Below the pieces are notes generated by a model, which did not search any database, had not been told where the DNA came from, and was given only the letters and a program-made list of their open reading frames with translations. This document shows, piece after piece, positions 31,666 to 64,000 of a stretch of 64,000 nucleotides of DNA. Source of the DNA: Pseudomonadota bacterium (GTDB lineage Bacteria; Bdellovibrionota_C; UBA2361; OMII01); the NCBI GenBank assembly GCA_041178185.1, contig JBEGVS010000064.1:64693-128692 (forward strand), written 5' to 3'. Within the stretch, counting starts at the first letter, position 1. Every line of letters begins with the position of its first letter. The translations under genes and the position numbers were made by a program.

Positions 31666-33432
<1,767 letters not shown>

Positions 33433-41712: not shown

Positions 41713-42261
41713 ATGAGAATTTGCACGACCACTATCCCCTTTTCGGGGATGAAAATTCAGACGGATCTCCCCCTCGAGGCGCTCAATGCTCGTCTGGCCG
41801 AGGGCTCGGAGAAGCAAGAGTTCCTCTTTGAAGGCCCTCCCATGGTTGACCTTACCCTGACTCGCACGCACGGCGGCATTCTGGTGAAGGGGGTCGTGTC
41901 CGGCCGCTGTCGACAGCAGTGTGCTACCTGCGCCGATCCTGTTCCCCACGAGATCATCTCCACCATCGACTGGCTCCTTCAAACTGAGAGCGACCGCGCA
42001 GGCCCCGAGGATGAGCTCGATGACCCCGGGGTCATCGTGTACGAGGGTGATCACGTCGAGCTGGAGGAGCCTTTGCAGGAGGCGCTGATCCTCAACATCA
42101 ATCCGTTCTGGCATCCAGAGCGAGATGCTCACGAGCGATGCACGGTATGCAAACGTGATTGCAGCTCGAGAGTATGGGGCGAGGAGAAGGAAGAGGGAAC
42201 AAAGACGAGCTCGACATTCGGCTCGTTGCTCCAAGGGGCCCTTAACGCTGCGAAGAAGTAG
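41713..42261 (+). CDS. yceD: YceD/DUF177 family protein
   Basis: CxxC...C pattern and DUF177 length. No rpmF or plsX follows. Confidence 0.65.
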   Translation: MRICTTTIPFSGMKIQTDLPLEALNARLAEGSEKQEFLFEGPPMVDLTLTRTHGGILVKGVVSGRCRQQCATCADPVPHEIISTIDWLLQTESDRAGPEDELDDPGVIVYEGDHVELEEPLQEALILNINPFWHPERDAHERCTVCKRDCSSRVWGEEKEEGTKTSSTFGSLLQGALNAAKK

Positions 42262-43252
42262 TCAGAAACCTAACCTCGCGCTGCAGGTCCCTTCTATCCC
42301 ACCCATATTTTTTAGAGAGCGCCTCGTAGAACGAACACCGCTCTCGAGTCATCGTCTCATATACACTCATGAGACCTGAGACCCCCTTTCGTGCAACGAT
42401 AGCTTCGAACTCAAGTGATGCGATGGCGTAGTCCTGACCTCCTCCATCAAAGGTGGAGGTTCCAACGTCAGCCTGGGATCGAATCATTCCTCTATACCGA
42501 TCTTGCACACTTCCCCTTGGGATTGAGGAGCTAAACGTAGCGCTGTATCCTTCAAACCACGCGGCGAACCCTTCAGCTCGCTTCCTATCATGAGCCCCTT
42601 TCCCCTCAAGCAACTCAAACTCAAGAACATGCCCCATCTCATGGAGCAGCACCTGTGTGAGAAGCGCATCAACGTCCCCACTCGGCTGGCAGTTTGGAGA
42701 GATGTATTCGACAACCATGTAGATCTGGTTTGGTGGAACCATAAAACCTGGGTGGCCCCCTAAGCTCAACGCAACGGGGAATTGGGAGACAGCGCTCGCC
42801 CGATCAATAAAAATCAGGGACCAATCTCGTCGCTCGCTCTTGATACGGTCATCGAAGCGCGCGGTCCGGAGCGCTCGATTAACAGCCGAGGCTGCCTCTG
42901 AGATGGCCCGCGTAGGAGGGCGCCCGAAGCACCGCTCCGCCGACCGGGGCCACCGAACATCCATCGCTCCCAAGGGAGTGCTGAACGAGGAACTTCGCTG
43001 GGCTCCTCTCAGTTCGACGTCCTCGACCTTCGGTATGTTTCGTGGTTCGGCAGTTTGGCACGTCGTCTTCGCTCGAAAACGCGCAGGCACATCCTTGAGC
43101 GTAGCTGCACTGTGAATGTTTCCTCTCTCATCGGCGTAGACGCACGACTCCTGAGCTTGACTCGGATACGGTTGCAGAACTACGGCGCTGATGAGGAGTG
43201 TTCGCGTAGCGCGATACAGAAACCTACCACTCCCCAGAGCTGCGATGGTCAT
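42242..43252 (-). CDS. hypothetical secreted HExxH zinc metallopeptidase-like protein
   Basis: Signal peptide and VLLHEMGHVLEF. Confidence 0.45.
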   Translation of the reverse strand: MTIAALGSGRFLYRATRTLLISAVVLQPYPSQAQESCVYADERGNIHSAATLKDVPARFRAKTTCQTAEPRNIPKVEDVELRGAQRSSSFSTPLGAMDVRWPRSAERCFGRPPTRAISEAASAVNRALRTARFDDRIKSERRDWSLIFIDRASAVSQFPVALSLGGHPGFMVPPNQIYMVVEYISPNCQPSGDVDALLTQVLLHEMGHVLEFELLEGKGAHDRKRAEGFAAWFEGYSATFSSSIPRGSVQDRYRGMIRSQADVGTSTFDGGGQDYAIASLEFEAIVARKGVSGLMSVYETMTRERCSFYEALSKKYGWDRRDLQREVRFLTTSSQR

Positions 43253-45984: not shown

Positions 45985-46785
45985 CTACGCGAGGCGGGGT
46001 GCACCAGAGGCAGCGATATGCCGGACGGTGGAGATATCGACTATGGTAGAATCACCATCGCTGCATCGCTCTAAAGCCACACCCATCCGAGGTTCGCATC
46101 GAAGTGCATATCCCGCGACAGAACCTCGCACGAAAGCCGAGCAGAAAAGGTCGGCTCCTTGATGTGCGCACGCATGCAGCGCTGCGGCCAGAACTTGATC
46201 TCTGGGGTCAGCGAAAATGAGCCCAATCTCATTGAGTATTTGCTCCTGTTCGCTACGGCCACTACCGAACGACTCCTTAACTACTGCGCGAATGGAGACC
46301 ACTCGCTCTTGTGAGAGATCCCGAGGCACAACCTGTTTGAGGATTTGTTGCGGTAGAGCTTCACACCAGGCAATCAACTTGGGATCTACGGCGTCTCTCC
46401 CAAACCTAGGAAGGGTGGCTCGAAAGTAATGATTGAGTACTTTCATCGCCAAGCCGTCGGTAACTCCAACCGGAAGTGTGAAGGTCGAGACACCTGTCTC
46501 TGTGCTGAAGGAATACGACCACAATATCTGCTCCGCTAAACGGAATGGAGTTTTACGTAGTATCGCTGGCGCTTCGCTGGCGGCTACATCGGTATGAAGG
46601 TCTGGCACCTTGGGTAGAGTCACCCCTGATTGGGAATCGAGAGTCGAACTTCTCGAGGCTTCCACCATCGCAACGATCTTCCTGGCGAGCACAGGATCGT
46701 TATCCAACGCCTCAATAACTTGCTCTCGCTGAGCGAGTGTTATCTTTTCATTCCTCACAATATCCATCTTCACATGCCTGAACAA
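45985..46785 (-). CDS. hypothetical protein (possibly an HDOD-like signalling domain)
   Basis: ORF with weak resemblance to an HDOD domain (HACAHQGADLF). Confidence 0.3.
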   Translation of the reverse strand: MFRHVKMDIVRNEKITLAQREQVIEALDNDPVLARKIVAMVEASRSSTLDSQSGVTLPKVPDLHTDVAASEAPAILRKTPFRLAEQILWSYSFSTETGVSTFTLPVGVTDGLAMKVLNHYFRATLPRFGRDAVDPKLIAWCEALPQQILKQVVPRDLSQERVVSIRAVVKESFGSGRSEQEQILNEIGLIFADPRDQVLAAALHACAHQGADLFCSAFVRGSVAGYALRCEPRMGVALERCSDGDSTIVDISTVRHIAASGAPRLA

Positions 46786-50632: not shown

Positions 50633-52555
50633 TTACTTGTTGTCGCGAACCTCTTCATAGTCGGCGTCAACAACGTCATCCTTATGGCTTGCACCTGCGC
50701 CGTTCTGCGACTCAGCTGCTCCAGCTCCGTTGGCGGTAGCTCCTGCAGCAGCAGCTCGCTTGTACGCCTCTTCGGAGAGCTTGTGACTCGCCTTCTCAAG
50801 GTTCTCGTACGCGCGCTTGATAGCATCCTGATCGTTGCTCTCGAGGGCCTTCTTGGCTTCCTCAAGCGCCGTATCGACGGTGCCCTTGAGTTCAGCAGTT
50901 GCCTTATCTCCGAGCTCCTTCAAGGTTGACTCAGTTGCGTAGACCATCGTGTCGAGCTTGTTCCGCTCCTCGATCAGCTCTCGACGCTTACGGTCCTCTT
51001 CGGCGTGCTCTTTCGCGTCCTGAACCATGCGCTCGATCTCCTCTTTCGAGAGTCCGGAGCTTGAAGTGATCTTAATCGACTGCTCCTTGCCCGTACCGAG
51101 GTCCTTAGCGGAAACCGATACGATACCGTTAGCATCGATGTCGAAGGTTACCTCGATCTGAGGAACTCCTCGAGGGGCAGCCGGAATTCCAACGAGCTCG
51201 AAACGTCCGAGTGTCTTGCTATCCGCAGCCATCTCTCGCTCTCCCTGGAGCACGTGAATCGATACTGCTGGCTGATTATCAGACGCCGTTGAGAACACCT
51301 GCGATTTGCGAGTGGGGATCGTTGTGTTCTTCTCGATCAGCTTCGTGTTCACTCCACCGTAGGTCTCGATTCCGAGACTGAGTGGGGTAACGTCGAGAAG
51401 GAGAACATCCTTAACGTCACCTTGAAGAACGCCTCCCTGAACTGCCGCTCCTATAGCAACGGCTTCGTCCGGATTTACGCTCTTCGAAGCTTCCTTACCG
51501 AAGATCTCCTTAACGCGCTGCTGTACAGCAGGCATACGGGTCATACCACCCACGAGGATAACCTCGCCGATATCGCTCGCACTAAGGCCCGCATCCTTGA
51601 GCGCAGTCCTGCACGGAGCCTCAAGACGTCGCAGAAGATCAGCGCACAGCTGTTCAAACTTGGCGCGGGTGATCTTCAAGTTAAGGTGCTTAGGTCCTGA
51701 AGCATCCGCCGTAATGAACGGAAGATTGATGTCGGTCTCCATAGAAGAGGAGAGCTCGTGCTTCGCCTTCTCAGCCGCCTCTTTGAGACGCTGAAGCGCC
51801 ATCGTGTCCTTGCGGAGGTCGATCCCCTGATCCTTCTTAAACTGATCCGCGATGTAATCAACGAGGATCAGATCGAAATCCTCTCCTCCGAGGAATGTAT
51901 CGCCATTCGTTGACTTCACTTCAAACACCCCATCGCCGAGCTCAAGAATCGATACGTCGAACGTACCTCCTCCAAGGTCGAACACAGCGACGGTCTTCTC
52001 GTGCTTCTTATCGAGGCCGTAGGCAAGCGCTGCCGCCGTTGGCTCGTTGATAATTCGAAGAACGTTCAGTCCAGCGATCTTTCCAGCGTCCTTCGTAGCT
52101 TGACGCTGCGCGTCATCGAAGTATGCAGGAACGGTAATCACAGCATCGGTCACAGCCTCCCCGAGGTAGTCCTCAGCGGTCTGCTTCATCTTAGTAAGAA
52201 CCATCGCGGAGATCTCTTGCGGGCTCTTGGCTTCACCCTTGAGCTTGACCCATGCATCCTGATTTTGCGACGAGGCGATCTCGTACGGCAGAACACCCTT
52301 GGCCTTCTCCACCTCTGGGGCGTTAACCTTCCGACCGATCAATCGCTTCACCGCGAAGATTGTGTTCTTCGGATTTGTAACGGCCTGACGCTTCGCTATC
52401 TGACCTACAAGACGCTCTCCTGCGTCGTTGACACCAACCACAGAGGGGGTCGTGCGGCTTCCCTCGCTGTTGGCGATGACGGTCGGTGCTCCAGCTTCCA
52501 TCACGGCAACGCACGAGTTCGTGGTTCCAAGGTCAATTCCAATTACTTTTCCCAT
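50633..52555 (-). CDS. dnaK: chaperone DnaK (Hsp70)
   Basis: [18 protein letters not shown], and an EEVD-less bacterial C-terminus. Confidence 0.97.
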
Positions 52556-52607
52556 AGCTCGTAGTACTCCTTGCTTAAAATCTTTAAATCTTTCTACCGT
52601 TCTTCTC

Positions 52608-53195
52608 TTAGGCTCCGTCTCCTGCTGTGGCGACGATCACCTCTCCGAACCGGATCAACTTATCCTTGTAGTAGTAGGGCTTCTTCAGCTCACCCACGAT
52701 TACTCCTGACTCGGCTCCCGGCACTCGGCTAATCGCCGCGTGCTTTTGTGGGTCGAACTGGGTTCCCATGCTCGACTCCCCCCGAATCTGCCACTTTCCA
52801 AGCTTTTCAACGAAGAGCCTGTGCACCATCTCCAACCCAGTTTTCAGGCTGTCTTGGCTTGCCGAGCTGTGGGAAAGCGCGAGCTCCAGGTTGTCCAGGA
52901 CCTCGAGCATATCTACAACGATCTTCTCTCCTTGGTATTTAAGTAGCTCAGACTGCTCCTTCAAGGCCCGGCGCTTAAAATTTTCAAAATCGGCCGCGAG
53001 TCGTAGGTAGCGGTCCTTTGCATCCGCTAGTTCAGCCTCAATGGACGGCTTCTCTCCAGCCTCAGGCTGAGCCTGATTCTCATTAGTAACATCTTGATTT
53101 GGCTCGGTATTATCTCCGCCTACATCCATGGCTTCGGCCTCTTCACGTGACTGCTTTTTTGACATTCGTGGTCTTTGCGTTTTGTTGAGTGGCAC
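52608..53195 (-). CDS. grpE: nucleotide exchange factor GrpE
   Basis: GrpE coiled-coil and beta-domain. The start may be the ATG at 53165 rather than the GTG at 53195. Confidence 0.85.
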
Positions 53196-53302
53196 CCTTT
53201 CGGCCTGAACCAGACCTCGAGAGCTTTCAGATCGATTAAAGGGCTCCGGCCCTTAAACCTTTCGGATAGGGTGTGCTATAAACACTTGCCGAGGCTTTTT
53301 CA

Positions 53303-53941
53303 ATGTCCACCCCTCAAAACGACTCACTTATTCCCGCAGAACAGCTAAAAAGGGGTCAAGAGACCTCGGTTCCGGCGATCGTCCTTCGAGTCACCCCGTT
53401 CCGAGAGAGCGACCTGATCGGACACCTCCTGACCCCAAGTATGGGCAAGATCTCGGTCATAGCCCGACATGCTCGTGGCAGTCGCAAACGGTTCCCGAGC
53501 TCCCTTGATCTCTTCGACCGAGGAACGGCTCGCCTCACCGTCGAAAAGAGCGGCGCCCTCGGCGTGAAGGAATTTTCACCATCGCACTCCCTTGTTCGGA
53601 TACGCCATGACCTCGATAAGCTCACCCTGGCCTCCCTCCTCTGCGAAGCGTTCGATATCGTTATCCCTGAGCACGGTGGGCATGCGACCCCACACCTCTT
53701 CGAGGTTCTCGACCTCTCCTTGAACGCGATCGATGAGGCCGCAGACGTCAAAGGGAGTCTCCGAGCAACCTTTATCGCCCTGGCGTCGCTGACACAGGAC
53801 AGTGGTATCGCCGATGTCTCGTCAGCGACTCCTGGCAGTCGCGCACTCGCACATCTCCTCGACACCATCGAACGATTCTGCGAACGTCGCCTCATGACAC
53901 GGAGCGCCCTGAAAGACATCATTAAACGAGCGGCGACGTGA
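53303..53941 (+). CDS. recO: DNA repair protein RecO
   Basis: RecO N-terminal OB-fold (AIVLRVTPFRESDLIGHLLT). Confidence 0.7.
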   Translation: MSTPQNDSLIPAEQLKRGQETSVPAIVLRVTPFRESDLIGHLLTPSMGKISVIARHARGSRKRFPSSLDLFDRGTARLTVEKSGALGVKEFSPSHSLVRIRHDLDKLTLASLLCEAFDIVIPEHGGHATPHLFEVLDLSLNAIDEAADVKGSLRATFIALASLTQDSGIADVSSATPGSRALAHLLDTIERFCERRLMTRSALKDIIKRAAT

Positions 53942-53963
53942 CGCCGCGCACGAGAGGATTACT

Positions 53964-54761
53964 ATGAGCACAACCACTACCTGCCTTGGTGTGATACCGG
54001 TTCGACTGGAGAGCTCACGCTTTCCCAACAAACCCCTTAAAGATATCCACGGAAAAACGCTCGTTGAGCGGGTGTGGCTTCAGGCCGGTCAGAGTAGTTG
54101 CGTAACGACCCTCGTCGTCGCAACGAACAATGAGGAGATCGCTGCCGAATGTACCAAGAAGGGCATGCGACACATCATGACCAGCGCATCACACGAAACA
54201 GGAACGGATAGAGTGGCGGAGGCTTGTGCCATACTTGAGAAACAGGGGCACTCATTTGACCTCGTAGCAAACATCCAAGGAGATATGCCCTTCGTGAATC
54301 CAACCGTGATCGACAGCGTGATCACATCGCTCGCGCGCTCCGAATCGGAATTTGGAATGGCGACCATCGGAACGCCGATTACAAGCCGCGAGGAGTTTGA
54401 GCGACCAGCCTCGGTTAAGATCGCGCTAGGAGAGTCGGGGCGTGCGCTGTACTTCTCACGTTCTGCTGTTCCCCACTGGCGAAACTTTCCAGGCGATTCG
54501 GCTATCTCAGCGGAGAGTCCGCTCGGCTACAAACATATGGGGCTCTATATATTTCGTCGAGAAACACTTGCGCAAATAGCGACCCTTCCAAAAGCCTTTA
54601 CCGAACAACGCGAGGCGCTGGAACAGCTCCGCGCTCTCGCCCACGGAATCGCCATTAAGGTGCATATCGTTTCGAGAGAGTCAGTTGAACCGTGCATTGA
54701 GGTCGACACGCCAGAGGATCTAGAACAAGCAATCCGCTTCGCCGCGCTCAAGAACCTCTAG
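53964..54761 (+). CDS. kdsB: 3-deoxy-manno-octulosonate cytidylyltransferase (CMP-KDO synthetase)
   Basis: IPVRLESSRFPNKPL and a ribosome-binding site (GAGAGGA). Confidence 0.9.
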   Translation: MSTTTTCLGVIPVRLESSRFPNKPLKDIHGKTLVERVWLQAGQSSCVTTLVVATNNEEIAAECTKKGMRHIMTSASHETGTDRVAEACAILEKQGHSFDLVANIQGDMPFVNPTVIDSVITSLARSESEFGMATIGTPITSREEFERPASVKIALGESGRALYFSRSAVPHWRNFPGDSAISAESPLGYKHMGLYIFRRETLAQIATLPKAFTEQREALEQLRALAHGIAIKVHIVSRESVEPCIEVDTPEDLEQAIRFAALKNL

Positions 54762-55333
54762 CTTGGTGGGGCTTTGCAGCTCAAGCGGCAGCATGGTGAA
54801 AGTCGCTGCACACGCAGCGAGGGCGCTCTAACAACGAGCACATGACTTCATTCGTTCAGTACACAGCGATCTGTCGACCTGTCCATTCAGCTCCCACGCC
54901 CATTCCTCTTCGCAGCAGGAAAATAAAAAACGGCCGGATTTGTATCCGCAAGCCAGGTAGCTGCAATCGTTTGTGGTAGCCGGCAACGGGTAGTTTGCAA
55001 GCTCTCACCAGGTCCATAGATTTAGTCATCCGTCTCTGTGAGCCCATGCCTGCTCTATCGGATATAGCGAAAACAAGTCTCTTGCCCCAGAACACACGAT
55101 CCGGTGATCTACCCCATATGGAGCATTGAACGGACCGGCTCTAATCGCCATCCTCTGGCCTAACAACCTGTATACATGGGGCTTTGTTGCAGCTTGAGTA
55201 GGGTTTGAGCGATGCGGTATCCTTGAGGCTTGAGTTAAGGTGCTGGATCAGGGGATCTGCACAATACCTATGTTATGCCCTCTTCTTGTGCTTCACCCCC
55301 TCCTGTGTTCTCGTTAGCGACGGAGGTGCGGAT

Positions 55334-56140
55334 ATGCTTCAGCCAACGAATACAAACATTTTCTCTGAATTTAGTCATTTTGGAGACTCCCTGATATCAC
55401 AGACTCACGAGCTAGTGCTTTCGCTGTGGAATCAGAGCTCTATTCACTCTGAGCTGAAGGAGGATCAGACCCCGGTGAGCGAAGTTGATCTTCGCTGCGA
55501 GGAGCTGGTTCGACAGCGAGTAAGACAAGCATTCCCCTCTCATGGAATCGTAGGTGAGGAGTTCGGATGGGAGAACAGAGGAGCTGAATTTACATGGACT
55601 ATTGATCCCATCGACGGCACTCAGAACCTGATTAATCGGATTCCAACCTTTGGGACCATCCTTGGGCTCCTTCATAAAGGTCAGCCGATCATGGGGTGGA
55701 TTGATCATCCTGTCTTGGGGGACTCCCTTCGCGGTGGAGTTGGAGTGGGCACCTTTTTCAACGGCACCAAGGTAACCTTAAATGATATACCAGAGTCAGG
55801 GATGACTCCTAACGATATAATTGCGACGAATTGCCCCGCGACATTTGCCAGAGGGGATCACCTGTCAGTTCTCGACGCTATTCTCAGGTTTCACCCCCAT
55901 TCCAGGATATACTACGACGTCTACTCTCACTCTCTCGCGATACGGGGTAGTCTCGCTGTAATGGTCGAATACAATCTTAAAATTTGGGATTTGTCGGCAA
56001 CAAAAGCGCTTATTCTGGGAGCGGGGGGCGCATTTCAAGAGCTTGGTAGCGAAGAGCTGACTGACGGGACAACCCTGTTTCACGCGGCATTTGGCAAGAA
56101 GCGCGCTGTGAATCTCATGGCAAAAGCATTATCAGAGTAG
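55334..56140 (+). CDS. inositol monophosphatase / CysQ family phosphatase
   Basis: WTIDPIDGT metal-binding motif. The ATG at 55334 is preceded by GGAGGTG, and the track's upstream extension lacks a ribosome-binding site. GC is visibly lower than in the upstream core genes. Confidence 0.75.
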   Translation: MLQPTNTNIFSEFSHFGDSLISQTHELVLSLWNQSSIHSELKEDQTPVSEVDLRCEELVRQRVRQAFPSHGIVGEEFGWENRGAEFTWTIDPIDGTQNLINRIPTFGTILGLLHKGQPIMGWIDHPVLGDSLRGGVGVGTFFNGTKVTLNDIPESGMTPNDIIATNCPATFARGDHLSVLDAILRFHPHSRIYYDVYSHSLAIRGSLAVMVEYNLKIWDLSATKALILGAGGAFQELGSEELTDGTTLFHAAFGKKRAVNLMAKALSE

Positions 56141-56198
56141 GCACGCGGCTCCTTTAAAGGGTATGTCAGAGCTGCTTTGCTAATGATACCATCGGACT

Positions 56199-56474
56199 AT
56201 GACTTTGCTCTTCGAATGGGACGCCTCCAAGGCTCGGTCAAATCTCAAAAAACATGGAATCTCTTTTGAAGAGGCCACTACTATTTTCGGTGATCCACGA
56301 GCAATTACCATTCAATCCTCAGTAGTTAGCGGAGAGAAGAGGCTGGTCACAATCGGCCGCTCTGCCGCAGGTCGGTTTGTCATAGTGGTGGTACATACCG
56401 ATAGAAATGATAGAATAAGAATTATAAGTGCTCGGCCCGCCAGCAGGGCGGAGCGGAAGCAATACGAGGGCTGA
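56199..56474 (+). CDS. brnT: BrnT-family (DUF497) type II toxin
   Basis: MTLLFEWDASKARSNLKKHGISFEEA...VVVHTDRNDRIRIISARPASRAERKQY, a close match to the BrnT pattern. Confidence 0.8.
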   Translation: MTLLFEWDASKARSNLKKHGISFEEATTIFGDPRAITIQSSVVSGEKRLVTIGRSAAGRFVIVVVHTDRNDRIRIISARPASRAERKQYEG

Positions 56475-56478
56475 TGAT

Positions 56479-56688
56479 ATGAAGCAGGAATATGACTTCT
56501 CCGAGGGTGTGCGGGGCAAATACTTCAAGCGTTATCAAGCAGGCTCAAACGTGGTGATTCTCGATCCTGAAATTGCCAAGGTGTTTAAAGACTCTGCATC
56601 CGTAAATGACGCTCTCCGCTCTCTTATCCGAGCAGCCGGACATAACAAAACTCTGCTGCGGACGCGCAAGACGCGCCGCAGAGCGTAG
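56479..56688 (+). CDS. brnA: BrnA-like antitoxin
   Basis: MKQEYDFSEGVRGKYFKRY; the gene overlaps and follows brnT; the 3' end lies inside an attC. Confidence 0.65.
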   Translation: MKQEYDFSEGVRGKYFKRYQAGSNVVILDPEIAKVFKDSASVNDALRSLIRAAGHNKTLLRTRKTRRRA

Positions 56689-56696
56689 CGTTACAC
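56641..56696 (+). repeat. attC-like site 1
   Basis: CATAACaaaa / CTCTGCTGCGGACGCG caa GACGCGCCGCAGAGCG / tagc GTTACAC. Confidence 0.65.
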
Positions 56697-56709
56697 AAAT
56701 TACTTACAG

Positions 56710-57033
56710 ATGAATGTTTCGAGGCTGATCAAGAAAAAGACGGGGAAAAGATGCGAGAGTTGTAGGGGAAGCGGCTTTCGCTGGGGGTGGTGGACAGCGA
56801 TCATAACTCTCCCTCTAAGTCTCTTGCTTGATTTAATCGTTCAAGTCCTTCCGATTGCTGTGCTAATCCTTCTCTTGGTCCTCGGATTTTCTTTTATGAC
56901 ACGGGCTTTTGAATGCATCTATTATGCCGTGACGGCCGTTATTGGCCTACCTCTGATTTGGTACGCGTCTAAATTTATTTTTCCGAGGTGTCTAGTTTGT
57001 AATGGTCGTGGACGAGTTGAGCACAATGTGTAA
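56710..57033 (+). CDS. hypothetical cassette protein: N-terminal CxxC, hydrophobic core, C-terminal CxxC
   Basis: CESCRGSG ... two TM-like segments ... CLVCNGRG. Confidence 0.45.
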   Translation: MNVSRLIKKKTGKRCESCRGSGFRWGWWTAIITLPLSLLLDLIVQVLPIAVLILLLVLGFSFMTRAFECIYYAVTAVIGLPLIWYASKFIFPRCLVCNGRGRVEHNV

Positions 57034-57085
57034 CAAGGCATTCGAGCGGGAGCGCCTTAGCGCCCGCTCACTGAAACGTTATGTG
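57028..57085 (+). repeat. attC-like site 2
   Basis: TGTAACAAG gcATTCGAGCGGgagCGCcttaGCGcccGCTCACTGAAac GTTATGT. Confidence 0.75.
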
Positions 57086-57103
57086 CACTAAGGAATTTCA
57101 GGC

Positions 57104-57346
57104 ATGCACGCAGAATTAGATAATTTCGGAACAGGCTGGTACGGGGTAACGCTTGGACTGAAAGAGAATGAAATTGATCACCTCATTGCTGCGCTGAACG
57201 GGTTAAAGAGAGAGAAAACGCACTTCCATTTTCGAAGTGAGTTTAAAGGCGACGGGGGAATTGGCGACGTCGAAATCTATTACCTGAAAGACGAGCAGCT
57301 AGACAATATGGAGCTTGAAGCGAGTGCAACACCTTTGCGGAAGTAG
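57104..57346 (+). CDS. hypothetical cassette protein (80 aa)
   Basis: ORF framed by attC 2 and attC 3. Confidence 0.4.
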   Translation: MHAELDNFGTGWYGVTLGLKENEIDHLIAALNGLKREKTHFHFRSEFKGDGGIGDVEIYYLKDEQLDNMELEASATPLRK

Positions 57347-57431
57347 ACCGGGCGTTACACCACGAGCGGTTCACTTCATCTTTCTCACCTAGGTGGTAAG
57401 AGAGGTCTGTGTATGGTGGCGTATTGTGCAC

Positions 57432-57515
57432 GTAACAACCGCATGGAGTTCGCGTCTGCTGACGCAGCCGCCGGACCTCGCTTACGCTCGGCCGCTCATG
57501 CGGAACGTTATCTCT
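57432..57515 (+). repeat. attC-like site 3 (long, ~84 bp)
   Basis: cGTAACAAcc GCATGgag...ctCATGCgg aac GTTATCT. Confidence 0.6.
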
Positions 57516-57527
57516 TGGAATTCTGTT

Positions 57528-58097
57528 ATGGGAACTAAGCGATTTTTGTTACGTCGGACTACCGCCCTGTGCGCGTTGGCGTTGAGTCTGAGTATGTTCA
57601 CCTATGCTTGTCATCGTGATGAGGTCGACGACGCTGGTGTTTGGCTTGCGAACACTACCAACGTGCCCGTTATTGTGTTCCAAATTCGCGCCGCAGATCA
57701 GCAGAATATCAACGACTATGAGCCTCGAAAGACCAAAAATGGAGAGAATCTATTCGTCAGTAAATCTGTCAGTGTTTCTAACGCGGATATCGGTCGTGTA
57801 CGTGTGATGGGGCATCAATTGGACGGAGTAGCGGAGTTTGAGGTGCAAATAGAGCTTTCCGAAAGTGGAGCGGAACGATTTGCCAACCTCACCGAAGATC
57901 GCATAGGGAAACAGGTCGCTCTTTTGATAGACGGGGTTGTTCAGGTAGCTCCTGTAGTTCGAACAAGAGTATCGAGTCGAACAATAACTCTAGCTGGTTT
58001 TCAGTCGGAAGAAGAAGCCACACGAGTGGCTCTTGGAATGATTGGGATCAGAGATAACATGGAAGCGGAGCGGATCGCCAACGCGCCCGCTCACTGA
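57528..58097 (+). CDS. hypothetical cassette lipoprotein with a SecD periplasmic-head-like segment
   Basis: Lipobox LSLSMFTYAC; KQVALLIDGVVQVAPVVRTRVSSRTITLAGFQSEEEATRVALGM resembles the SecD P1 head. The ATG at 57528 lies just after attC 3. Confidence 0.45.
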   Translation: MGTKRFLLRRTTALCALALSLSMFTYACHRDEVDDAGVWLANTTNVPVIVFQIRAADQQNINDYEPRKTKNGENLFVSKSVSVSNADIGRVRVMGHQLDGVAEFEVQIELSESGAERFANLTEDRIGKQVALLIDGVVQVAPVVRTRVSSRTITLAGFQSEEEATRVALGMIGIRDNMEAERIANAPAH

Positions 58098-58107
58098 AAC
58101 GTTGTGC
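58054..58107 (+). repeat. attC-like site 4 (overlaps the last 13 codons of the preceding ORF)
   Basis: ATAACAT ggaagcGGAGCGGATCGCcaacGCGcccGCTCACTGAAac GTTGTGC. Confidence 0.7.
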
Positions 58108-58178
58108 CCTATAGTGTGGTAGGGCACAGACCTCTATGAAATGCCCCTGTTGAGGGACAAGACCACGGTGCTCCTCGG

Positions 58179-58928
58179 ATGACTAATTACTCAAACATTT
58201 ACAGAGGCGCAGAGTACGCATCCTACAGACCCGAATACCCCGAGGGGTTGTTTCGCTGGTTGTGTTCTCTTCCAGAATCAAAAGAGCATGCGTGGGATTG
58301 TGGTACCGGTAATGGACAGGTTGCTCGCAATCTAGCGGGATTCTTCGAGCGCGTCACAGCTACTGATAGCAACCATGAACAGATTCAGAAGTGCTCTATG
58401 TTGCGAAATATTCGCTATGCGGTTGAACACGCGGAGAAATCATCACTCCCAGACAAAAGTATTGATCTTGTCACGGTTGGGTGTGCGGTACACTGGTTCG
58501 ACACCGAAAAGTTCTACGCCGAGGTCAGCCGTGTACTCAAACCGGGTGGTATGATTGCTGTTTGGTGTTATGAGTATCCGTGGACTGGAAATCACGAAGT
58601 GGATGAAATTCTCCGACATTACAAGGAGGCCATCTTGGGTGATTTTTGGCCTCCGGAGGCTCAGATTTATTTTAATCGTTACCAAAATCTTCAATTTCCC
58701 TTCGAGGGAATACGGGCACAAATCCCCACCTTTGAGATCGATTGTCAGTGGGGGCCGTCCGACGTGCTCAACTTTCTGTCGACCTGGACAGGACCAATCA
58801 GATATAAAAATGAGACCGGGCAGGATCCGAAATTGTGTGTTGAGGAAGATCTGTCAAAGGCATGGAGTGCTGCAGGTCTTACTGTAGGGGTTAAATTGCC
58901 GATCTATATGAAGGTAGGAAAGCTCTAA
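58179..58928 (+). CDS. class I SAM-dependent methyltransferase (Methyltransf_11-like)
   Basis: Motif I DCGTGNGQVARNL and motif II DLVTVGCAVHWF. Confidence 0.8.
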   Translation: MTNYSNIYRGAEYASYRPEYPEGLFRWLCSLPESKEHAWDCGTGNGQVARNLAGFFERVTATDSNHEQIQKCSMLRNIRYAVEHAEKSSLPDKSIDLVTVGCAVHWFDTEKFYAEVSRVLKPGGMIAVWCYEYPWTGNHEVDEILRHYKEAILGDFWPPEAQIYFNRYQNLQFPFEGIRAQIPTFEIDCQWGPSDVLNFLSTWTGPIRYKNETGQDPKLCVEEDLSKAWSAAGLTVGVKLPIYMKVGKL

Positions 58929-59035
58929 ATTTTCTCCATTGTTTAACTAGTTGATGGATCAGCACTAAAGGTGACTGCTTCAGTGTTATGATCGGATAAT
59001 TATCTTGGATTGCACGACCTTGGTTTGGTAAAGTG

Positions 59036-59091
59036 GCACAACAATGTATTCGAGCGGATCGCTAAAGCGGCCGCTCACTGCGACGTTATGC
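59036..59091 (+). repeat. attC-like site 5
   Basis: ACAACAATgtATTCGAGCGGatCGCtaaaGCGgccGCTCACTGcgac GTTATGC. Confidence 0.75.
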
Positions 59092-59098
59092 CGAAGTC

Positions 59099-59728
59099 AT
59101 GATACCCAAGAGAATAATCGTCATCGGTGGCAGCACGGTTCACGGGCAAGGCGACCCCTACAGCGGGGGCTTTGTAGCTCGCCTGCGCAGATGGCACGAG
59201 ACCTCGAGTGTTGAAAACAATCGCGTATTTAACCTTGGTGTCGGTGGCGACGGTGTGTTTGAGATGCTTACTCGAGGCCCGGGAGAATGTCGCGCCCGAC
59301 GGCCTGACCTGATTGTCCTTTACCCCGGCCTCAACGATACGAGAAGAGTTGGCGGACCAGAGGCCCCGCCCCAGCATTCATTTGAAAGTGTTAGAAAGAC
59401 CCTGGGGGCGCTTATTTCTGAGCTAGGCCAAATCTCTCCGCTTGTTGTCTTGAGTGCGGTGCCAGTAGATGAGTCAAGGACCAGCCCATTCTGGGGCAAG
59501 TGGTATTTTCGAATGTCCGATGCAGTGACGATGGCAGAGGTAGTGGCTGAGGTCTGCCGCGTGACTGACACGCCGCATATGCCTTTGTTTGAGACATGGG
59601 CAAGTCGCGCTGACCTTAAAGATCTTCTCGCTGATGGAGTGCACCTGAATTCGGCAGGGCATGAATTGTTGTTTCAGGAGCTTACATCATTTCTTTGCGG
59701 ACTCTTCACGACCAGCCAATCATTATAA
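59099..59728 (+). CDS. SGNH/GDSL-family hydrolase
   Basis: N-terminal block IVIGGSTVHGQGD (GDS(x) variant), LYPGLND, and C-terminal DGVHLN (catalytic DxxH). Confidence 0.75.
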   Translation: MIPKRIIVIGGSTVHGQGDPYSGGFVARLRRWHETSSVENNRVFNLGVGGDGVFEMLTRGPGECRARRPDLIVLYPGLNDTRRVGGPEAPPQHSFESVRKTLGALISELGQISPLVVLSAVPVDESRTSPFWGKWYFRMSDAVTMAEVVAEVCRVTDTPHMPLFETWASRADLKDLLADGVHLNSAGHELLFQELTSFLCGLFTTSQSL

Positions 59729-59766
59729 GTCTTGGCTTATTATAACACAGAGCTTATACTACGCTG

Positions 59767-60099
59767 GTGAAGGTCAGATACTATCAAACCCCAAGTGGGC
59801 GCTCTCCCGTAGAAGACTTCCTGGTACGCTTGCCCGAGGCGATGCGTTCGGAAATCTTCGATGCTCTTGCGCTTTTACAGGCTGGTGTGACACTAGCGAT
59901 GCCCCTCAGTAGAAATCTGTCGGGCATCAGGTTCGGGCTGCACGAGCTTAGATTCAGAGATCGCACCGGTCAGGTACGTGTATTTTATTATTTGAAACGT
60001 GGCGATGCGATATATCTCGTCCATGCGTTCAGGAAGAAGACCCAGCACATCCCTCAAAAAGAGCTTGATATAGTTTTGAAACGAATTAAGGAGATATAG
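59767..60099 (+). CDS. RelE/ParE-superfamily toxin (HigB / Gp49-DUF891-like)
   Basis: 110 aa with a GTG start, immediately followed by an HTH antitoxin gene; KVRYYQTPSGRSPVEDFL...IYLVHAFRKKTQ. Confidence 0.65.
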   Translation: MKVRYYQTPSGRSPVEDFLVRLPEAMRSEIFDALALLQAGVTLAMPLSRNLSGIRFGLHELRFRDRTGQVRVFYYLKRGDAIYLVHAFRKKTQHIPQKELDIVLKRIKEI

Positions 60100-60100
60100 T

Positions 60101-60382
60101 ATGCCTTGGAAAGAAATAACTATCGAGGGTCTCGCCAAGTCTCTGGGAGCTAATGTGTCTGAAGTTCGAGAGAAACAGCGCCTTATAGGGATGATCGTAA
60201 AGATAAGGAAAGCTAAAAGAATGTCTCAGGCTGCCCTTGCTAAAAAGCTAGGCGTAAGCCAGGCGAGAGTCGCACAAATCGAAAGTGGTGTCGGGACATC
60301 GAAGGTTAGCTTTGATGTAATTTTCGGTATTTTGACGACGTTAGGTTATGATTATAGGGTCGTAACCCGTAAGGCGGCATAA
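60101..60382 (+). CDS. XRE-family HTH antitoxin (HigA-like)
   Basis: MSQAALAKKLGVSQARVAQIE helix-turn-helix; 2-nt gap after the toxin gene. Confidence 0.75.
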   Translation: MPWKEITIEGLAKSLGANVSEVREKQRLIGMIVKIRKAKRMSQAALAKKLGVSQARVAQIESGVGTSKVSFDVIFGILTTLGYDYRVVTRKAA

Positions 60383-60432
60383 CAACATCATCCAGCAGAC
60401 CGCTGATGCGGCTGCTGATAGCAACGTTATAC
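60377..60432 (+). repeat. attC-like site 6
   Basis: GCATAAC (supplies the TAA stop) aacatcatccAGCAGaCCGCtgatGCGGcTGCTgatagcaac GTTATAC. Confidence 0.7.
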
Positions 60433-60452
60433 GCAAGAAGATAGCTTGATGC

Positions 60453-60923
60453 ATGGAAATAAAATTTCTTGCCGATCGACCCGATGCGGTTCCCATATTG
60501 GCTCGCTGGTACTTCGAGCAGTGGGGCCACGAGGAGCCGGGCAACTCATTTGAACTTACTTGCGAGCGTCTTAATGGCAAGTTAAATCGAAATTTTGCTC
60601 CGATTCCGATAATAGCGGGCGAGGCAGATGGTACTGTGATTGGTGCTGCCCAGCTCAAGTTACGCGAAATGGACATTTTCCCCGAGAGAGAGCATTGGAT
60701 CGGTGGAGTTTATGTTGATCCATCTGTCAGAGGGCGAGGAGTAGCAGCCGCGCTTGTTGCCAAGCTGATTGAGTTGGCGAAAAATCTCAGCATTAAGGAG
60801 CTCTGGTTACAAACGGAAGCACTGGACGGTGGTCTTTATAAACGCCTGGGGTGGTCAGTTGTTGAGATACTGGATTACAGAGGGCATAGGGTCGCTGTCA
60901 TGGTGAAACAAATTGGCGTATGA
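60453..60923 (+). CDS. GNAT-family N-acetyltransferase
   Basis: Acetyl-CoA-binding motif A, VRGRGVAAALVAKLIELA. Confidence 0.8.
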   Translation: MEIKFLADRPDAVPILARWYFEQWGHEEPGNSFELTCERLNGKLNRNFAPIPIIAGEADGTVIGAAQLKLREMDIFPEREHWIGGVYVDPSVRGRGVAAALVAKLIELAKNLSIKELWLQTEALDGGLYKRLGWSVVEILDYRGHRVAVMVKQIGV

Positions 60924-60973
60924 CAATCGAAGCCAGCAGAGCTTTCTGCACCTGCTGCTCCTAACCGTTATAC
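60921..60973 (+). repeat. attC-like site 7
   Basis: tgACAATcgaAGCCAGCAGagctttctgcaCCTGCTGCTcctaacc GTTATAC. Confidence 0.6.
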
Positions 60974-61148
60974 CCTAGGTTCTATGGGGGTTTAGCCCCT
61001 GGCCCTTCGGAAGAACTGTAGCCACTCTCGAGCAAGTTTGCCCTGGTGATTCGGTAGTTACATCGCTTCGACGGAAGGTTAGCCTCTTGTTCCAGCATCT
61101 TAATTTTTCGTGTTTGAGTATCTCTGCGTAAACCCGTAAGATTAGGGG

Positions 61149-61204
61149 TATAACAAGCCATTCGAGCGGGAGCGCTTTAGCGCCCGCTCACTGAGGCGTT
61201 ATGC
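61149..61204 (+). repeat. attC-like site 8 (closes an ORF-less ~175-bp cassette)
   Basis: gtATAACAAGcCATTCGAGCGGgagCGCtttaGCGcccGCTCACTGAGgc GTTATGC. Confidence 0.75.
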
Positions 61205-61205
61205 G

Positions 61206-61553
61206 ATGAACGATTTTATTTTTGTATTCCTTGATGATGGCACGCTCGATGTTGTTAGCTCTGCTAGCAACATTAACGGAGCCTATGAGGGAATCGATGT
61301 GGAAGAAGGTAGATACGCCTTTTTCAATTCCAAGTTGCATGAGTTGACGCCTAAGTTCACGACAGCGAACAAGAACTCCGGTATTTTTGGGCTCTCGTTG
61401 GTTTCCTCTGGCGCCTACCAGCTGGAAGATTCCGAAGGTGGTAGCAGTGATTTCATGGGGCGACTTAAGCTTGTCTCGAGAGTAAATTCGAATTCATGGT
61501 TTGCGACAATTTCGCAAATCGAGGATTACGCGCGGTCTCTCGGGATCGCATAA
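61206..61553 (+). CDS. hypothetical cassette protein (115 aa)
   Basis: ORF framed by attC 8 and attC 9; the ATG is 2 nt after R'. Confidence 0.45.
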   Translation: MNDFIFVFLDDGTLDVVSSASNINGAYEGIDVEEGRYAFFNSKLHELTPKFTTANKNSGIFGLSLVSSGAYQLEDSEGGSSDFMGRLKLVSRVNSNSWFATISQIEDYARSLGIA

Positions 61554-61603
61554 CAAAACATTCGAGCGGATCGCTAAGGCGCCCGCTCACCGAAACGTTA
61601 TCC
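61548..61603 (+). repeat. attC-like site 9
   Basis: GCATAAC (TAA stop) aaaaCATTCGAGCGGatCGCtaagGCGcccGCTCACCGAAac GTTATCC. Confidence 0.75.
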
Positions 61604-61614
61604 TCCGCACCAAT

Positions 61615-62118
61615 ATGAAAGAAATTACAGTAAGAAAAATGATTGAAGCTGACATTGACGAGATGGCAGAAGTTCATTCAAAGGTGTTCCCGCGCCAATC
61701 ATCTTCACTCGAATGGATTGAATGCAACTTTAAGGCATTTCCTAGAATCCAGTATTTCGTGGTCGAATGTGATAACCGGGTCGTTGGTTTTATCGAATGG
61801 ATCCAGAAAAGTGGATTCCGAAAAGAAGCGGTCCTGGAGCTCGAGCAGATGGGGGTTTTGCCGGACTACCAAGGAAAAGGCTTCGGGCGACTACTGATTG
61901 AAAAATCTCTTCCCTTTGTGAAGCATCAACTTGCATCGAGAGGCGCCACAATAAAGCATGTTGTAGTGACGACGCGCACCGATAATGCCGCGCAAAAACT
62001 GTATGCATCGACTCTAGGGGCAGAGGTGGAAACTACGATTGCTAATCTCTACTCTGCCGATGAAGTGATCATGATTGCCCGTAATGTGGATCGGCAAGGT
62101 GAAATGAGAAGAGGATAA
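61615..62118 (+). CDS. GNAT-family N-acetyltransferase
   Basis: QMGVLPDYQGKGFGRLLIEKSL. The ATG at 61615 is used; the track's longer ORF starts inside the previous cassette. Confidence 0.8.
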   Translation: MKEITVRKMIEADIDEMAEVHSKVFPRQSSSLEWIECNFKAFPRIQYFVVECDNRVVGFIEWIQKSGFRKEAVLELEQMGVLPDYQGKGFGRLLIEKSLPFVKHQLASRGATIKHVVVTTRTDNAAQKLYASTLGAEVETTIANLYSADEVIMIARNVDRQGEMRRG

Positions 62119-62176
62119 CAATCCTGCGCACGATGATTTCGGACTATCGTCCGAAACACGTGGCAAAAACATTATC
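62114..62176 (+). repeat. attC-like site 10 (degenerate R')
   Basis: GATAACAATcctgCGCACGatgaTTTCGGACtatcGTCCGAAAcaCGTGgcaaaaac ATTATCT. Confidence 0.5.
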
Positions 62177-62207
62177 TTACTAATTCAGTTTGTAGACTCG
62201 ATTTACT

Positions 62208-62786
62208 ATGTTCGACGAGAAGCAGCAAAAGCACCTTGAGCGGATCCGGGATGTCGCGGTAAAGGATATAGAGCGAGGCGGAGACAGGAATGGATACACA
62301 AGATGTATTCAAATTCTGGACAAACTGCATGCGCCAGAGAAAGTGAAGGACGAACTCCGTGAAATCGCCTGCTGGGAGCTCGTAAGAGATCTTGTTGATC
62401 CGACGGCTTCTTTTGAAATTCTACGCGGGCATCGGCTTCCTAAGATCCCAAATTATCTGCCGGACGATTTTGGCCATCGCCTTCAATCAGGTACAGCACC
62501 TGAAGTTATGATATCACTTGCAGAGTTGTGCAAGAAGTATGGACTTGCATACGAATATTGGGCTGTTTTAGGCAACTTATACGACCGTAAAGGATTAGTC
62601 GATTTGGCTTGCGAGTATTTTAATCGACAGCATGAATTGACTTTCGACAACCACGACGAATTTTTGGTAGTCTTCGCTAGTTTTTGTGAAAATGTCGCTG
62701 ATAAAGTTCCTAGTGTATCAGACCTTGCGGAGCGTAGATCACGCCTGGCTCAAACTGTGCGGAATATCTCTTTGTCAGATCTGTGA
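62208..62786 (+). CDS. hypothetical cassette protein (192 aa)
   Basis: ORF framed by attC 10 and attC 11. Confidence 0.4.
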   Translation: MFDEKQQKHLERIRDVAVKDIERGGDRNGYTRCIQILDKLHAPEKVKDELREIACWELVRDLVDPTASFEILRGHRLPKIPNYLPDDFGHRLQSGTAPEVMISLAELCKKYGLAYEYWAVLGNLYDRKGLVDLACEYFNRQHELTFDNHDEFLVVFASFCENVADKVPSVSDLAERRSRLAQTVRNISLSDL

Positions 62787-62805
62787 GATGAATGATATGA
62801 ACAGA

Positions 62806-62859
62806 GATAACCAGTAAATTGAACCGACTGCATAGCAGCGGCACATTTTGACGTTATCT
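62806..62859 (+). repeat. attC-like site 11
   Basis: GATAACCagtaaattgaaccgaCTGCatagcaGCGGcacattttgac GTTATCT. Confidence 0.55.
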
Positions 62860-62880
62860 TCCCCTCATCACGGGACAATT

Positions 62881-63354
62881 ATGGCCACAGCATTCAATCC
62901 AAAGGGTATCTTCGAAGTGCACTTAAGTGTCGAAGATCGTCGGCGTTCGACGGAGTTTTACCAGCGAGTGCTTGGTTTTGAGCTAGCCACTCACATTGAT
63001 CGCCGCGACATCACCTTTCTTTGGATGGGCGGTCACGGGTCGGGAATGCTAGGCCTTTGGGGGCCCGAATGTCCTGACTCGCCAATAAGTCGTGGCATAG
63101 GGCACTTTGCGATGCGCCTCTCGAAAGAAGAGGTTATTGAGGCCGTTGATAAACTGCGGCAACTTGGGGTAATTCCGCTAGATTTTGATGGCAAGCCGAC
63201 ACAACAGCCAGTGGTGCTTGCATGGATGCCTGCAGTGTCCATTTATTTTCAAGATCCTGACGGCCACTCACTAGAGTTCATCAGTATGCTCAACGAGCAG
63301 CCGGAAGCGGAACTCGGAGTTTTGAATTGGCAAGATTGGGAGCACAGAAGATAA
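62881..63354 (+). CDS. VOC-family (glyoxalase / bleomycin-resistance / dioxygenase fold) protein
   Basis: FEVHLSVEDRRRSTEFYQRVLGFEL...HFAMRL...DPDGHSLEF. The ATG at 62881 is used. Confidence 0.75.
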   Translation: MATAFNPKGIFEVHLSVEDRRRSTEFYQRVLGFELATHIDRRDITFLWMGGHGSGMLGLWGPECPDSPISRGIGHFAMRLSKEEVIEAVDKLRQLGVIPLDFDGKPTQQPVVLAWMPAVSIYFQDPDGHSLEFISMLNEQPEAELGVLNWQDWEHRR

Positions 63355-63399
63355 CAAGCATCGGCACGGGAGCTACGCCCCGTGCGCAAGACGTTATCT
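63350..63399 (+). repeat. attC-like site 12
   Basis: GATAACAAGcatcGGCACGGGagctacgCCCCGTGCgcaagac GTTATCT. Confidence 0.7.
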
Positions 63400-63410
63400 T
63401 CGTTTCAGGC

Positions 63411-63971
63411 ATGAAAAAATTCGTAATCATTCATGGAACCAAAGGCTCGCCCGAAGGCAATTGGTTCCCCTGGCTCGCGGATTCCCTACGACAACAACAC
63501 GCAGAGGTTGTGGTCCCAAGAATGCCAACTCCCGAAGGCCAGAATCTAGAGAATTGGCTCGAGGAGCTTCGGCGACAAGCTGGAGCACTCGACGAGACTA
63601 CCACTCTCATCGGGCACAGCTTGGGCGCCACATTTCTGCTGCGTGTTCTTGAAAGCCAAAAGGTTTCCATGGCTCAGTCAGTGTTTGTTGCGGGTCTTCT
63701 GGGTCCAATCGGCATTGCGGAATACGATCAACTGAATTCGACTTTTATCGCAACTTCTTACGATTGGGGCACGATACGGAGCAATGCAGGATCTGTGGTA
63801 TGCGTCTCTGGCGAGGGGGACCCGTACGTTCCCGCGGAGCAAGGGAAAGAACTCGCCGCAAAACTCGGGGCCCAGAATCATGTTGTACCCAAAGGCGGGC
63901 ACCTAAATGCCGAGTTTGGCTATACTTCCTTTCCGCAGCTCTTGGGCCTGCTCACTAACGCAGCGGCTTAA
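63411..63971 (+). CDS. alpha/beta hydrolase (YdeN/RBBP9-like serine hydrolase)
   Basis: MKKFVIIHGTKGSPEGNWFPW, a nucleophile elbow GHSLG, and a C-terminal GGHLN. The ATG at 63411 is used. Confidence 0.7.
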   Translation: MKKFVIIHGTKGSPEGNWFPWLADSLRQQHAEVVVPRMPTPEGQNLENWLEELRRQAGALDETTTLIGHSLGATFLLRVLESQKVSMAQSVFVAGLLGPIGIAEYDQLNSTFIATSYDWGTIRSNAGSVVCVSGEGDPYVPAEQGKELAAKLGAQNHVVPKGGHLNAEFGYTSFPQLLGLLTNAAA

Positions 63972-64000
63972 GACCCATCTTAAGAGCGTTGAATTCTGTA

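Follow-up and report, generated by a model that had tools for sequence, protein, structure and literature searches.

The analysis of a 64,000-nucleotide stretch of DNA (the window), from a freshwater bacterium of the Bdellovibrionota that has not been cultured, suggests that its positions 54762-56198 span the proximal end of a chromosomal platform of the sedentary integron type whose integrase gene is not in cis. In the reading that we prefer, and to which we give a probability of about 0.6, the array of cassettes and an attI-type site are served in trans by an integrase encoded elsewhere. This reading is based on canonical attC hairpins, exact G|TT boundaries, a conserved first junction of the double-strand type, a difference of one cassette between strains and a cassette shared between contexts. 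Cassette hairpins of the attC type, G|TT boundaries and one-cassette strain differences are hallmarks of IntI-driven attI x attC and attC x attC recombination.

Twelve attC sites were located by eye in the window, each folding into an R''/R' hairpin, and all of them (12/12) run left to right, as had been predicted. When they were aligned, 5 of the 11 consensus pairs showed compensatory changes, and AAC and GTT were conserved. A covariance model (R1) was built from these 12 aligned sites and run with filters off. It returned exactly the same 12 on the plus strand (25.8-63.6 bits) and nothing else in 64 kb, with no attC in 54762-56638 or in 59094-60376; these scores are partly circular, because the model was trained on the same sites. 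Measured between G|TT crossovers, the cassettes range from 231 to 1,418 bp. Cassettes 2-12 occupy 56691-63393 on the plus strand, as judged from attC crossovers and gene content, with the G of G|TT at 57078, 57507, 58101, 59085, 60426, 60967, 61198, 61597, 62171, 62853 and 63393. Cassette 13 starts at 63394 and runs on the plus strand to the window's last position (63394-64000), with a Ser_hydrolase gene at 63411-63971. A near-identical contig, L097, carries the array at least 3.8 kb and at least four more cassettes past the window before it ends inside the array. Cassette 1 is followed by at least 12 further cassettes, and an array of attC-bounded cassettes, as expected of an integron, is present.

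Several features of individual cassettes were recorded. The attC at 62112-62180 has a degenerate R' with ATT in place of GTT at the crossover triplet, and on this ground the junction between cassettes 61598-62171 and 62172-62853 may no longer be recombinable. The 231-bp cassette at 60968-61198 contains no plus-strand ORF; the single ORF in it, of 59 aa, is on the minus strand (60982-61161). It could be an ORF-less or a promoter/regulatory cassette. Three-gene cassettes were found in which an enzyme gene and a toxin-antitoxin pair have one attC: IMPase-BrnT-BrnA (55273-56690) and GDSL hydrolase-HigB(Gp49)-HTH (59086-60426). At 3543-5217 of the oriented contig L095 a large gene, which resembles the periplasmic binding protein genes of contigs L001 and L002, is likewise followed by BrnTA. 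Toxin-antitoxin modules seem to hitch-hike with cargo instead of making cassettes of their own.

Cassette 1 spans 55273-56690 on the plus strand (1,418 bp). It holds an IMPase-family gene (55334-56140; Pfam Inositol_P, 1.6e-38), a brnT gene (56199-56474) that starts 58 bp past it, a brnA-like gene of the small antitoxin-like kind (56470-56688) that overlaps brnT, and one attC. For the IMPase-family gene the nearest NCBIfam model was HisN, with a score below its cut-off. The attC (56639-56699, plus strand) is a hairpin with R'' ACATAAC and R' GTTACAC, the G being at 56690, and it scored 43.7 bits with R1 (E 1.4e-07). The absence of an attC directly after the IMPase gene had already been pointed out; R1 with filters off found none between this gene and brnT, because the attC is common to IMPase and brnTA.

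Contigs for comparison were retrieved from metagenomes by exact-protein look-ups of the IMPase protein and KdsB. One of these (L006, a 32.9-kb JGI contig) is 100% identical to the window over 52000-55275, then jumps to 56690 and continues with 99.97% identity across 7,311 bp. Another (L007, a Logan assembly) is 100% identical over 53107-55275 and makes the same jump. Since the match ends at 55275 and resumes at 56690 in both, 55273-56690 is one cassette; GTTA is common to both junctions of the jump. Either the window gained cassette 1 by insertion or L006 and L007 lost it by excision, at G55272|T55273. This presence/absence polymorphism places an attI-type junction at the very head of an array for which the original prediction had seen no attI.

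The same cassette was also found in L001-L005 (98.9-100% identity) after four other upstream partners, and its homology always begins at 55272/55273. The partner in L002 and L003 is a long attC ending in ...ACTGAAACA|TT (ACA|TT at the crossover), that in L005 is another attC with the end ...CGAAACG|TT, that in L001 is a third attC of which 2 nt are visible, and that in L004 is a divergent leader. Downstream, cassette 1 is followed by three different cassettes, with the junctions at 56690. Overall, it occurs in at least five contexts at no more than 1.1% divergence; the junction of the window's leader with the IMPase cassette was seen in the window only. As cassette 1 is absent from L006 and L007 and present in L001-L005, the IMPase gene is mobile and not a core gene, and the suggestion that it might be a fixed former cassette gives way to a mobile cassette of three genes. 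Another contig, L008, is identical to the window and ends exactly at 55275; L001 and L005 start at 55272. Independent short-read contigs thus break exactly at the attI/attC crossover, which agrees with the coexistence of several alleles in the samples concerned.

The last core gene before the array is kdsB (CMP-KDO synthetase; 53964-54761, plus strand), identified by Pfam CTP_transf_3 and by NCBIfam TIGR00466 (186.9 bits against a cut-off of 155.2). To its left lie recO (53303-53941) and grpE (52608-53195, minus strand), with dnaK and dnaJ farther left. GC content falls from 0.544 (1-54761) through 0.526 (54762-55272) to 0.493 in the array. No coding signal was detected in 54762-55333, where Pfam was run on every stop-free segment of 54740-55300 with E up to 10. 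Scans of the whole window and of 54700-55400 gave no tRNA or tmRNA, and no Rfam family, whether with the gathering threshold or with E up to 1 as the cut-off. All of this is in line with the original prediction, which had listed the same core genes on this side, a drop in GC and a noncoding stretch.

The first part of that stretch, 54762-55029, is a non-conserved spacer of ~270 bp without strand assignment, found only in the window's strain lineage and showing no ORF homology and no RNA family. Inside it, at 54935-54948 on the minus strand, there is a terminator-like hairpin with a T run, oriented as if terminating a leftward transcript out of the leader. Shuffles of the region gave a mean of 1.7 such sites, so that a single one is within chance. 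A minus-strand RNA in the spacer was considered and rejected, since its fold was no better than that of shuffled sequences (z-score 0.32).

Proteins with 89-90% identity to KdsB are found in MAGs of freshwater Bdellovibrionota. In the closest four relatives (L009-L012, ~84% nucleotide identity) synteny covers dnaJ-dnaK-grpE-recO-kdsB and breaks at 54754-54764, which is the kdsB stop codon; in L010 the sequence past kdsB is unrelated and not integron-like. No R1 attC, leader core or IntI1 match was found within 10 kb in 79 kdsB loci, these four included. With no array at their kdsB loci, the relatives could not reveal an ancestral intI. Comparison of the kdsB/IMPase junction with related contigs, which had been proposed as a check, thus revealed two differences: the leader and array are missing at kdsB in L009-L012, and cassette 1 is missing in L006 and L007. 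The presence of a leader and array at the kdsB position is specific to the window's lineage. In more distant relatives (L022-L030) kdsB is followed by a homologue of the window gene 31687-33432, which in the window sits 22 kb upstream of kdsB; the 3' end of kdsB is therefore a rearrangement breakpoint in the lineage.

Between the spacer and the crossover lies a conserved leader (55030-55272, plus strand; ~245 bp). At its end, an attI-type core, GCACAATACCTATG|TTA, occupies 55259-55275 on the plus strand, with the crossover between G55272 and T55273. The 22-mer at this core has a single occurrence in the window, against a chance expectation of 0. On the evidence of the cassette 1 polymorphism with its exact boundaries, and of the different first cassettes behind this conserved core in other contigs, it is an attI-type primary insertion site that heads the array and has its crossover at G|TT. 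Farther upstream there are a conserved CTAAC at 55160 and a promoter-like motif, TTGAGT-18 nt-TATCCT (55194-55223, plus strand), which points into the cassettes. In all seven aligned leaders (7/7) the motif is kept as TTGAGN, 18 nt, TAnnnT with fixed spacing, and the TTGAG columns are invariant. It agrees with 8 of 12 consensus positions, which is below the threshold of the scan, and the scan called no consensus sigma-70 promoter; we infer that it is a candidate for Pc.

Two palindromes bracket the promoter-like motif. The distal one, GATCCGGTGATCT (GATC-N4-GATC; 55098-55110, no strand assigned), is a conserved block in the leader alignment. The proximal one (55245-55258, no strand assigned) lies between the promoter-like motif and the crossover and is degenerate in the window (GGATCAGGGGATCT); its consensus, GTGYTAGATC-ACCG-GATCTGCAC, is the only consensus helix of the leaders. 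The leader palindrome sequence reads AGATCACCGGATCT. The palindromes are 14 bp long and are inverted copies 147 bp apart (~14 helical turns), and each GATC-N4-GATC carries two GATC sites. Given this arrangement and the absence of compensatory changes between the copies, they look like protein-binding sites and not like a stem; control by a methylation-sensitive or looping regulator is conceivable. Direct repeats of the attI kind had been suggested as something to look for in 54762-55333. The pair at 54767 and 55177, with a score of 21 where shuffled sequences average 18.3 ± 2.4, was discarded as not significant. At 55176 and 55212 there is a 24-nt direct repeat, 71% identical, which is shared with L096 only.

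Left of the crossover, the window and L004 have only the core GGATCTNCNCARTACCTATGTT in common. An exact-pattern scan of metagenomes with this core, built from these two sequences only, returned nine contigs. The leader is homologous in seven of them (L088, L089, L091, L093, L094, L095 and L096); the matches in L090 (inside an 86.6-kb contig) and L092 were judged to be due to chance, having no leader homology and no attC. The seven leaders align with the window over ~245-260 bp where the contig extends far enough, with pairwise identities of 52-74%. Invariant columns make up 25 of the 31 up to GTT, 19 of the 98 farther upstream and 0 of the 7 after GTTA, and the last 22 nt before the crossover are identical or nearly so across the leaders. 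Such invariance at the crossover amid an overall identity of 52-74% points to selection on the recombination site. Past GTT the divergence is immediate: nine different first cassettes (in the window, in L006/L007 and in the seven contigs) all start with TTA. In five of the seven contigs (L088, L091, L094, L095 with three sites, and L096) R1 found attC downstream of the leader in the predicted orientation at E<0.5.

In L088, L091 and L095 the leader is preceded on its left by an SRPBCC-epimerase/DUF1731 gene; in L096 its left neighbour is a response regulator gene on the minus strand. The left flanks of several of the leader contigs are short (0.1-1.1 kb). That of L095 is 2.8 kb and contains DtxR-like, YqeY-like and SRPBCC-epimerase/DUF1731 genes, all on the plus strand; the first two names come from reading the translations and the third from a domain scan. 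In this contig the leader is followed by three cassettes and then by an AsnC-type HTH gene and an epimerase gene, with no recombinase on either side, and it appears to be a complete small platform. A tblastn search of the leader contigs with IntI1 gave no match at E up to 10. The leader family is present in at least three distinct chromosomal contexts without an integrase in cis. The divergent leader of L004 (JGI 3300043449, the sample of L006) lies at 1-114, is ~50% identical and has the core GGATCTACTCAGTACCTATGTT. The first two cassettes of L004 are those of the window at 99.8% identity, which suggests either exchange of a cassette block between platforms or two platforms in one population.

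Searches for an integrase employed an IntI1 sequence validated by its matches to Pfam Phage_integrase (168 bits) and Phage_int_SAM_4 (97 bits). With this query no integrase was found by tblastn against the whole 64-kb window (best E 0.98) or by phmmer --max against all 918 of its stop-free segments of at least 40 aa (best E 0.29), as had been predicted. Regular expressions for catalytic motifs gave no match over the window's segments, and the larger ORFs scanned were metabolic genes or had no Pfam match, none belonging to a recombinase family. Three ORFs of the core region, at 15394-16437, 42242-43252 and 45985-46785 (347, 336 and 266 aa), were without a Pfam match at E≤0.001, and none of them is recombinase-like. 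The 510 bp from kdsB to the crossover contain no intI remnant detectable by tblastn, phmmer or Pfam (54740-55300). No integrase was seen in ~2.4 kb to the left of the window (contig L099), which holds core metabolism genes, or to its right (contig L097), where there are further cassettes. No IntI was found in 99 related loci; viral contigs lack both the attC core and the leader core, and plasmids contain nothing resembling 54762-56700. A complete integron has, next to attI, an intI gene for a tyrosine recombinase with the IntI-specific insertion; no such gene was found in the window. The original prediction left room for an intI immediately outside the window, which would have made this a complete integron. 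That does not apply here, as the side on which intI was expected lies inside the window, with 55 kb free of recombinase genes. Its proposal that the integrase end had been deleted was not borne out either: the attI-type end is intact, and homologous leaders in at least three other contexts without intI argue against a private deletion in the window's genome.

With no recombinase within 55 kb, the enzyme would have to act in trans. In the arrangement that we propose, kdsB is followed by a spacer of 270 bp, a leader of ~245 bp, the attI-type core GCACAATACCTATG|TT and the cassettes, which enter or leave at G55272|T55273. An IntI-type integrase encoded at another chromosomal locus or on another replicon would recognise the attI-type site and the attC hairpins. 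The leader motif would act as the Pc promoter, and the palindromes would bind a regulator or an accessory protein. Integron integrases do act on unlinked arrays, and about half of CALINs are in genomes with IntI elsewhere (PMC4889954).

By the operational definition of Cury et al. (2016, PMC4889954), which asks for at least two attC and no nearby intI, the array is a CALIN, one of the outcomes that had been predicted, and it is one at both clustering distances, 4 kb and the 10 kb of the relaxed test. It is like other CALINs in that at least 12 attC share one direction and that intI is missing over 4 kb (in this case over 55 kb), and, as in 95% of them (PMC4889954), there is no recognisable intI pseudogene nearby. 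It differs in that its proximal end is not a ragged break: the attI-type site there is intact and conserved and has a promoter-like leader, and this leader is common to several lineages, all without a cis intI. A further difference is the single cassette that sets near-identical strains apart, which suggests recent turnover at the attI-type site. CALINs are usually taken for dead integron remnants. Applied to this array, that would mean that the integrase was lost genome-wide and the array is frozen, strain differences being due to homologous recombination or predating the loss. The polymorphism could indeed be obtained without a resident integrase, by homologous recombination with another strain in which the leader and cassette 2 serve as flanks. 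Decay would also agree with the 55 kb devoid of intI, with the fact that CALINs are common, with the degenerate R' of one attC, and with the multi-gene cassettes, which suggest some loss of attC. This is the main rival of the trans reading; we nevertheless regard it as unlikely. The difference between strains is one cassette with exact G|TT boundaries between flanks that are 99.97-100% identical, and cassette 1 has kept within 1.1% divergence in all its contexts. The 31 columns by the crossover have stayed nearly invariant in leaders otherwise so diverged, and neither a remnant of intI at the window's array nor an intI in any leader context was seen.

The possibility was also considered that the leader is a long diverged attC and that the array is an internal fragment of an integron moved next to kdsB by rearrangement. 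In all leaders CTAAC stands ~112 nt upstream of GTTA, in the manner of R''/R', and the 3' end of kdsB is, as described, a rearrangement breakpoint. However, R1 with filters off gave no match there on the plus strand, and neither the MFE fold nor the consensus fold of the seven leaders pairs CTAAC with GTTA or contains an L''/L' helix, so that 55155-55282 shows neither the RYYYAAC/GTTRRRY pairing nor the helix of an attC. The same leader, moreover, heads every array found, and in L088, L091 and L095 it comes immediately after a core gene, not after another cassette. We consider this explanation very improbable.

Integrases use many genomic GWT sites, and these have been proposed as a source of small CALINs and SALINs (bioRxiv 10.1101/2022.09.11.507474). 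The array could have begun with a cassette at such a random site downstream of kdsB and grown from there, with no true attI. Like attG sites, the locus has chromosomal cassettes without an adjacent integrase and a junction at GTT, and the array directly abuts core genes. Unlike attG sites, for which only a GWT consensus is described (bioRxiv 10.1101/2022.09.11.507474), it has a flank of ~245 bp that is conserved at seven other loci beside different core genes. A random, non-conserved site would share no such flank, and an origin of this type is more improbable still. Least credible of all is a misjoin of the array to the kdsB contig: attC repeats do break assemblies, as the ends of L008 at the crossover and of L097 inside the array illustrate, but the kdsB-leader-array join is found in three independent assemblies (L006, L007 and L008; one JGI and two Logan runs), and across the junction the leader of the window has only 11 nt in common with that of L004, probably too few for a k-mer graph chimera.

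In function, the platform served in trans that we favour resembles sedentary chromosomal integrons such as the Vibrio cholerae superintegron and the ilvD-linked integron of Xanthomonas. Like these, it is chromosomal and located beside core genes, with a long array of cassettes mostly of unknown function, homogeneous attC, BrnTA/HigBA-like cassettes and a GC content below that of the core. Unlike in these, intI is not next to attI; in known sedentary integrons, intI, functional or as a pseudogene, lies directly upstream of attI. The putative site also resembles the attI of classes 1-3 (attI1 consists of a simple site with DR1/DR2) in that the crossover G|TT falls in a GTTRRRY-like box, in its likely role as a partner for attC, in that conservation stops at the crossover, and in that repeated motifs lie upstream (the palindrome pair, and the 24-nt repeat in the window and L096). 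It has, however, no sequence similarity to known attI sites, and the GATC-N4-GATC palindromes 147 bp apart take the place of DR1/DR2.

A wider version of the trans reading can be formulated for the whole lineage as a "split integron": in freshwater Bdellovibrionota-like bacteria, one or several modules of attI, Pc leader and array would persist at separate places on the chromosome, never linked to intI, and all be served by one unlinked, perhaps mobile, integrase, the GATC-N4-GATC palindromes providing leader-specific control. We put this forward tentatively, as an idea with somewhat less than even chances. L004, which comes from the sample of L006 and combines a divergent leader with the window's first two cassettes, agrees with a cassette pool that is shared and served in trans.

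To our knowledge, attI sites outside classes 1-3 have almost never been identified. What is new here is an attI-type site placed to the base from natural polymorphism, together with a diverged and locally invariant leader family whose members are all without a cis integrase. Should these modules be served by an unlinked integrase, surveys centred on integrases would count too few active integron platforms, and the cis-linkage of intI and attI, which belongs to the textbook definition, would not be obligatory.
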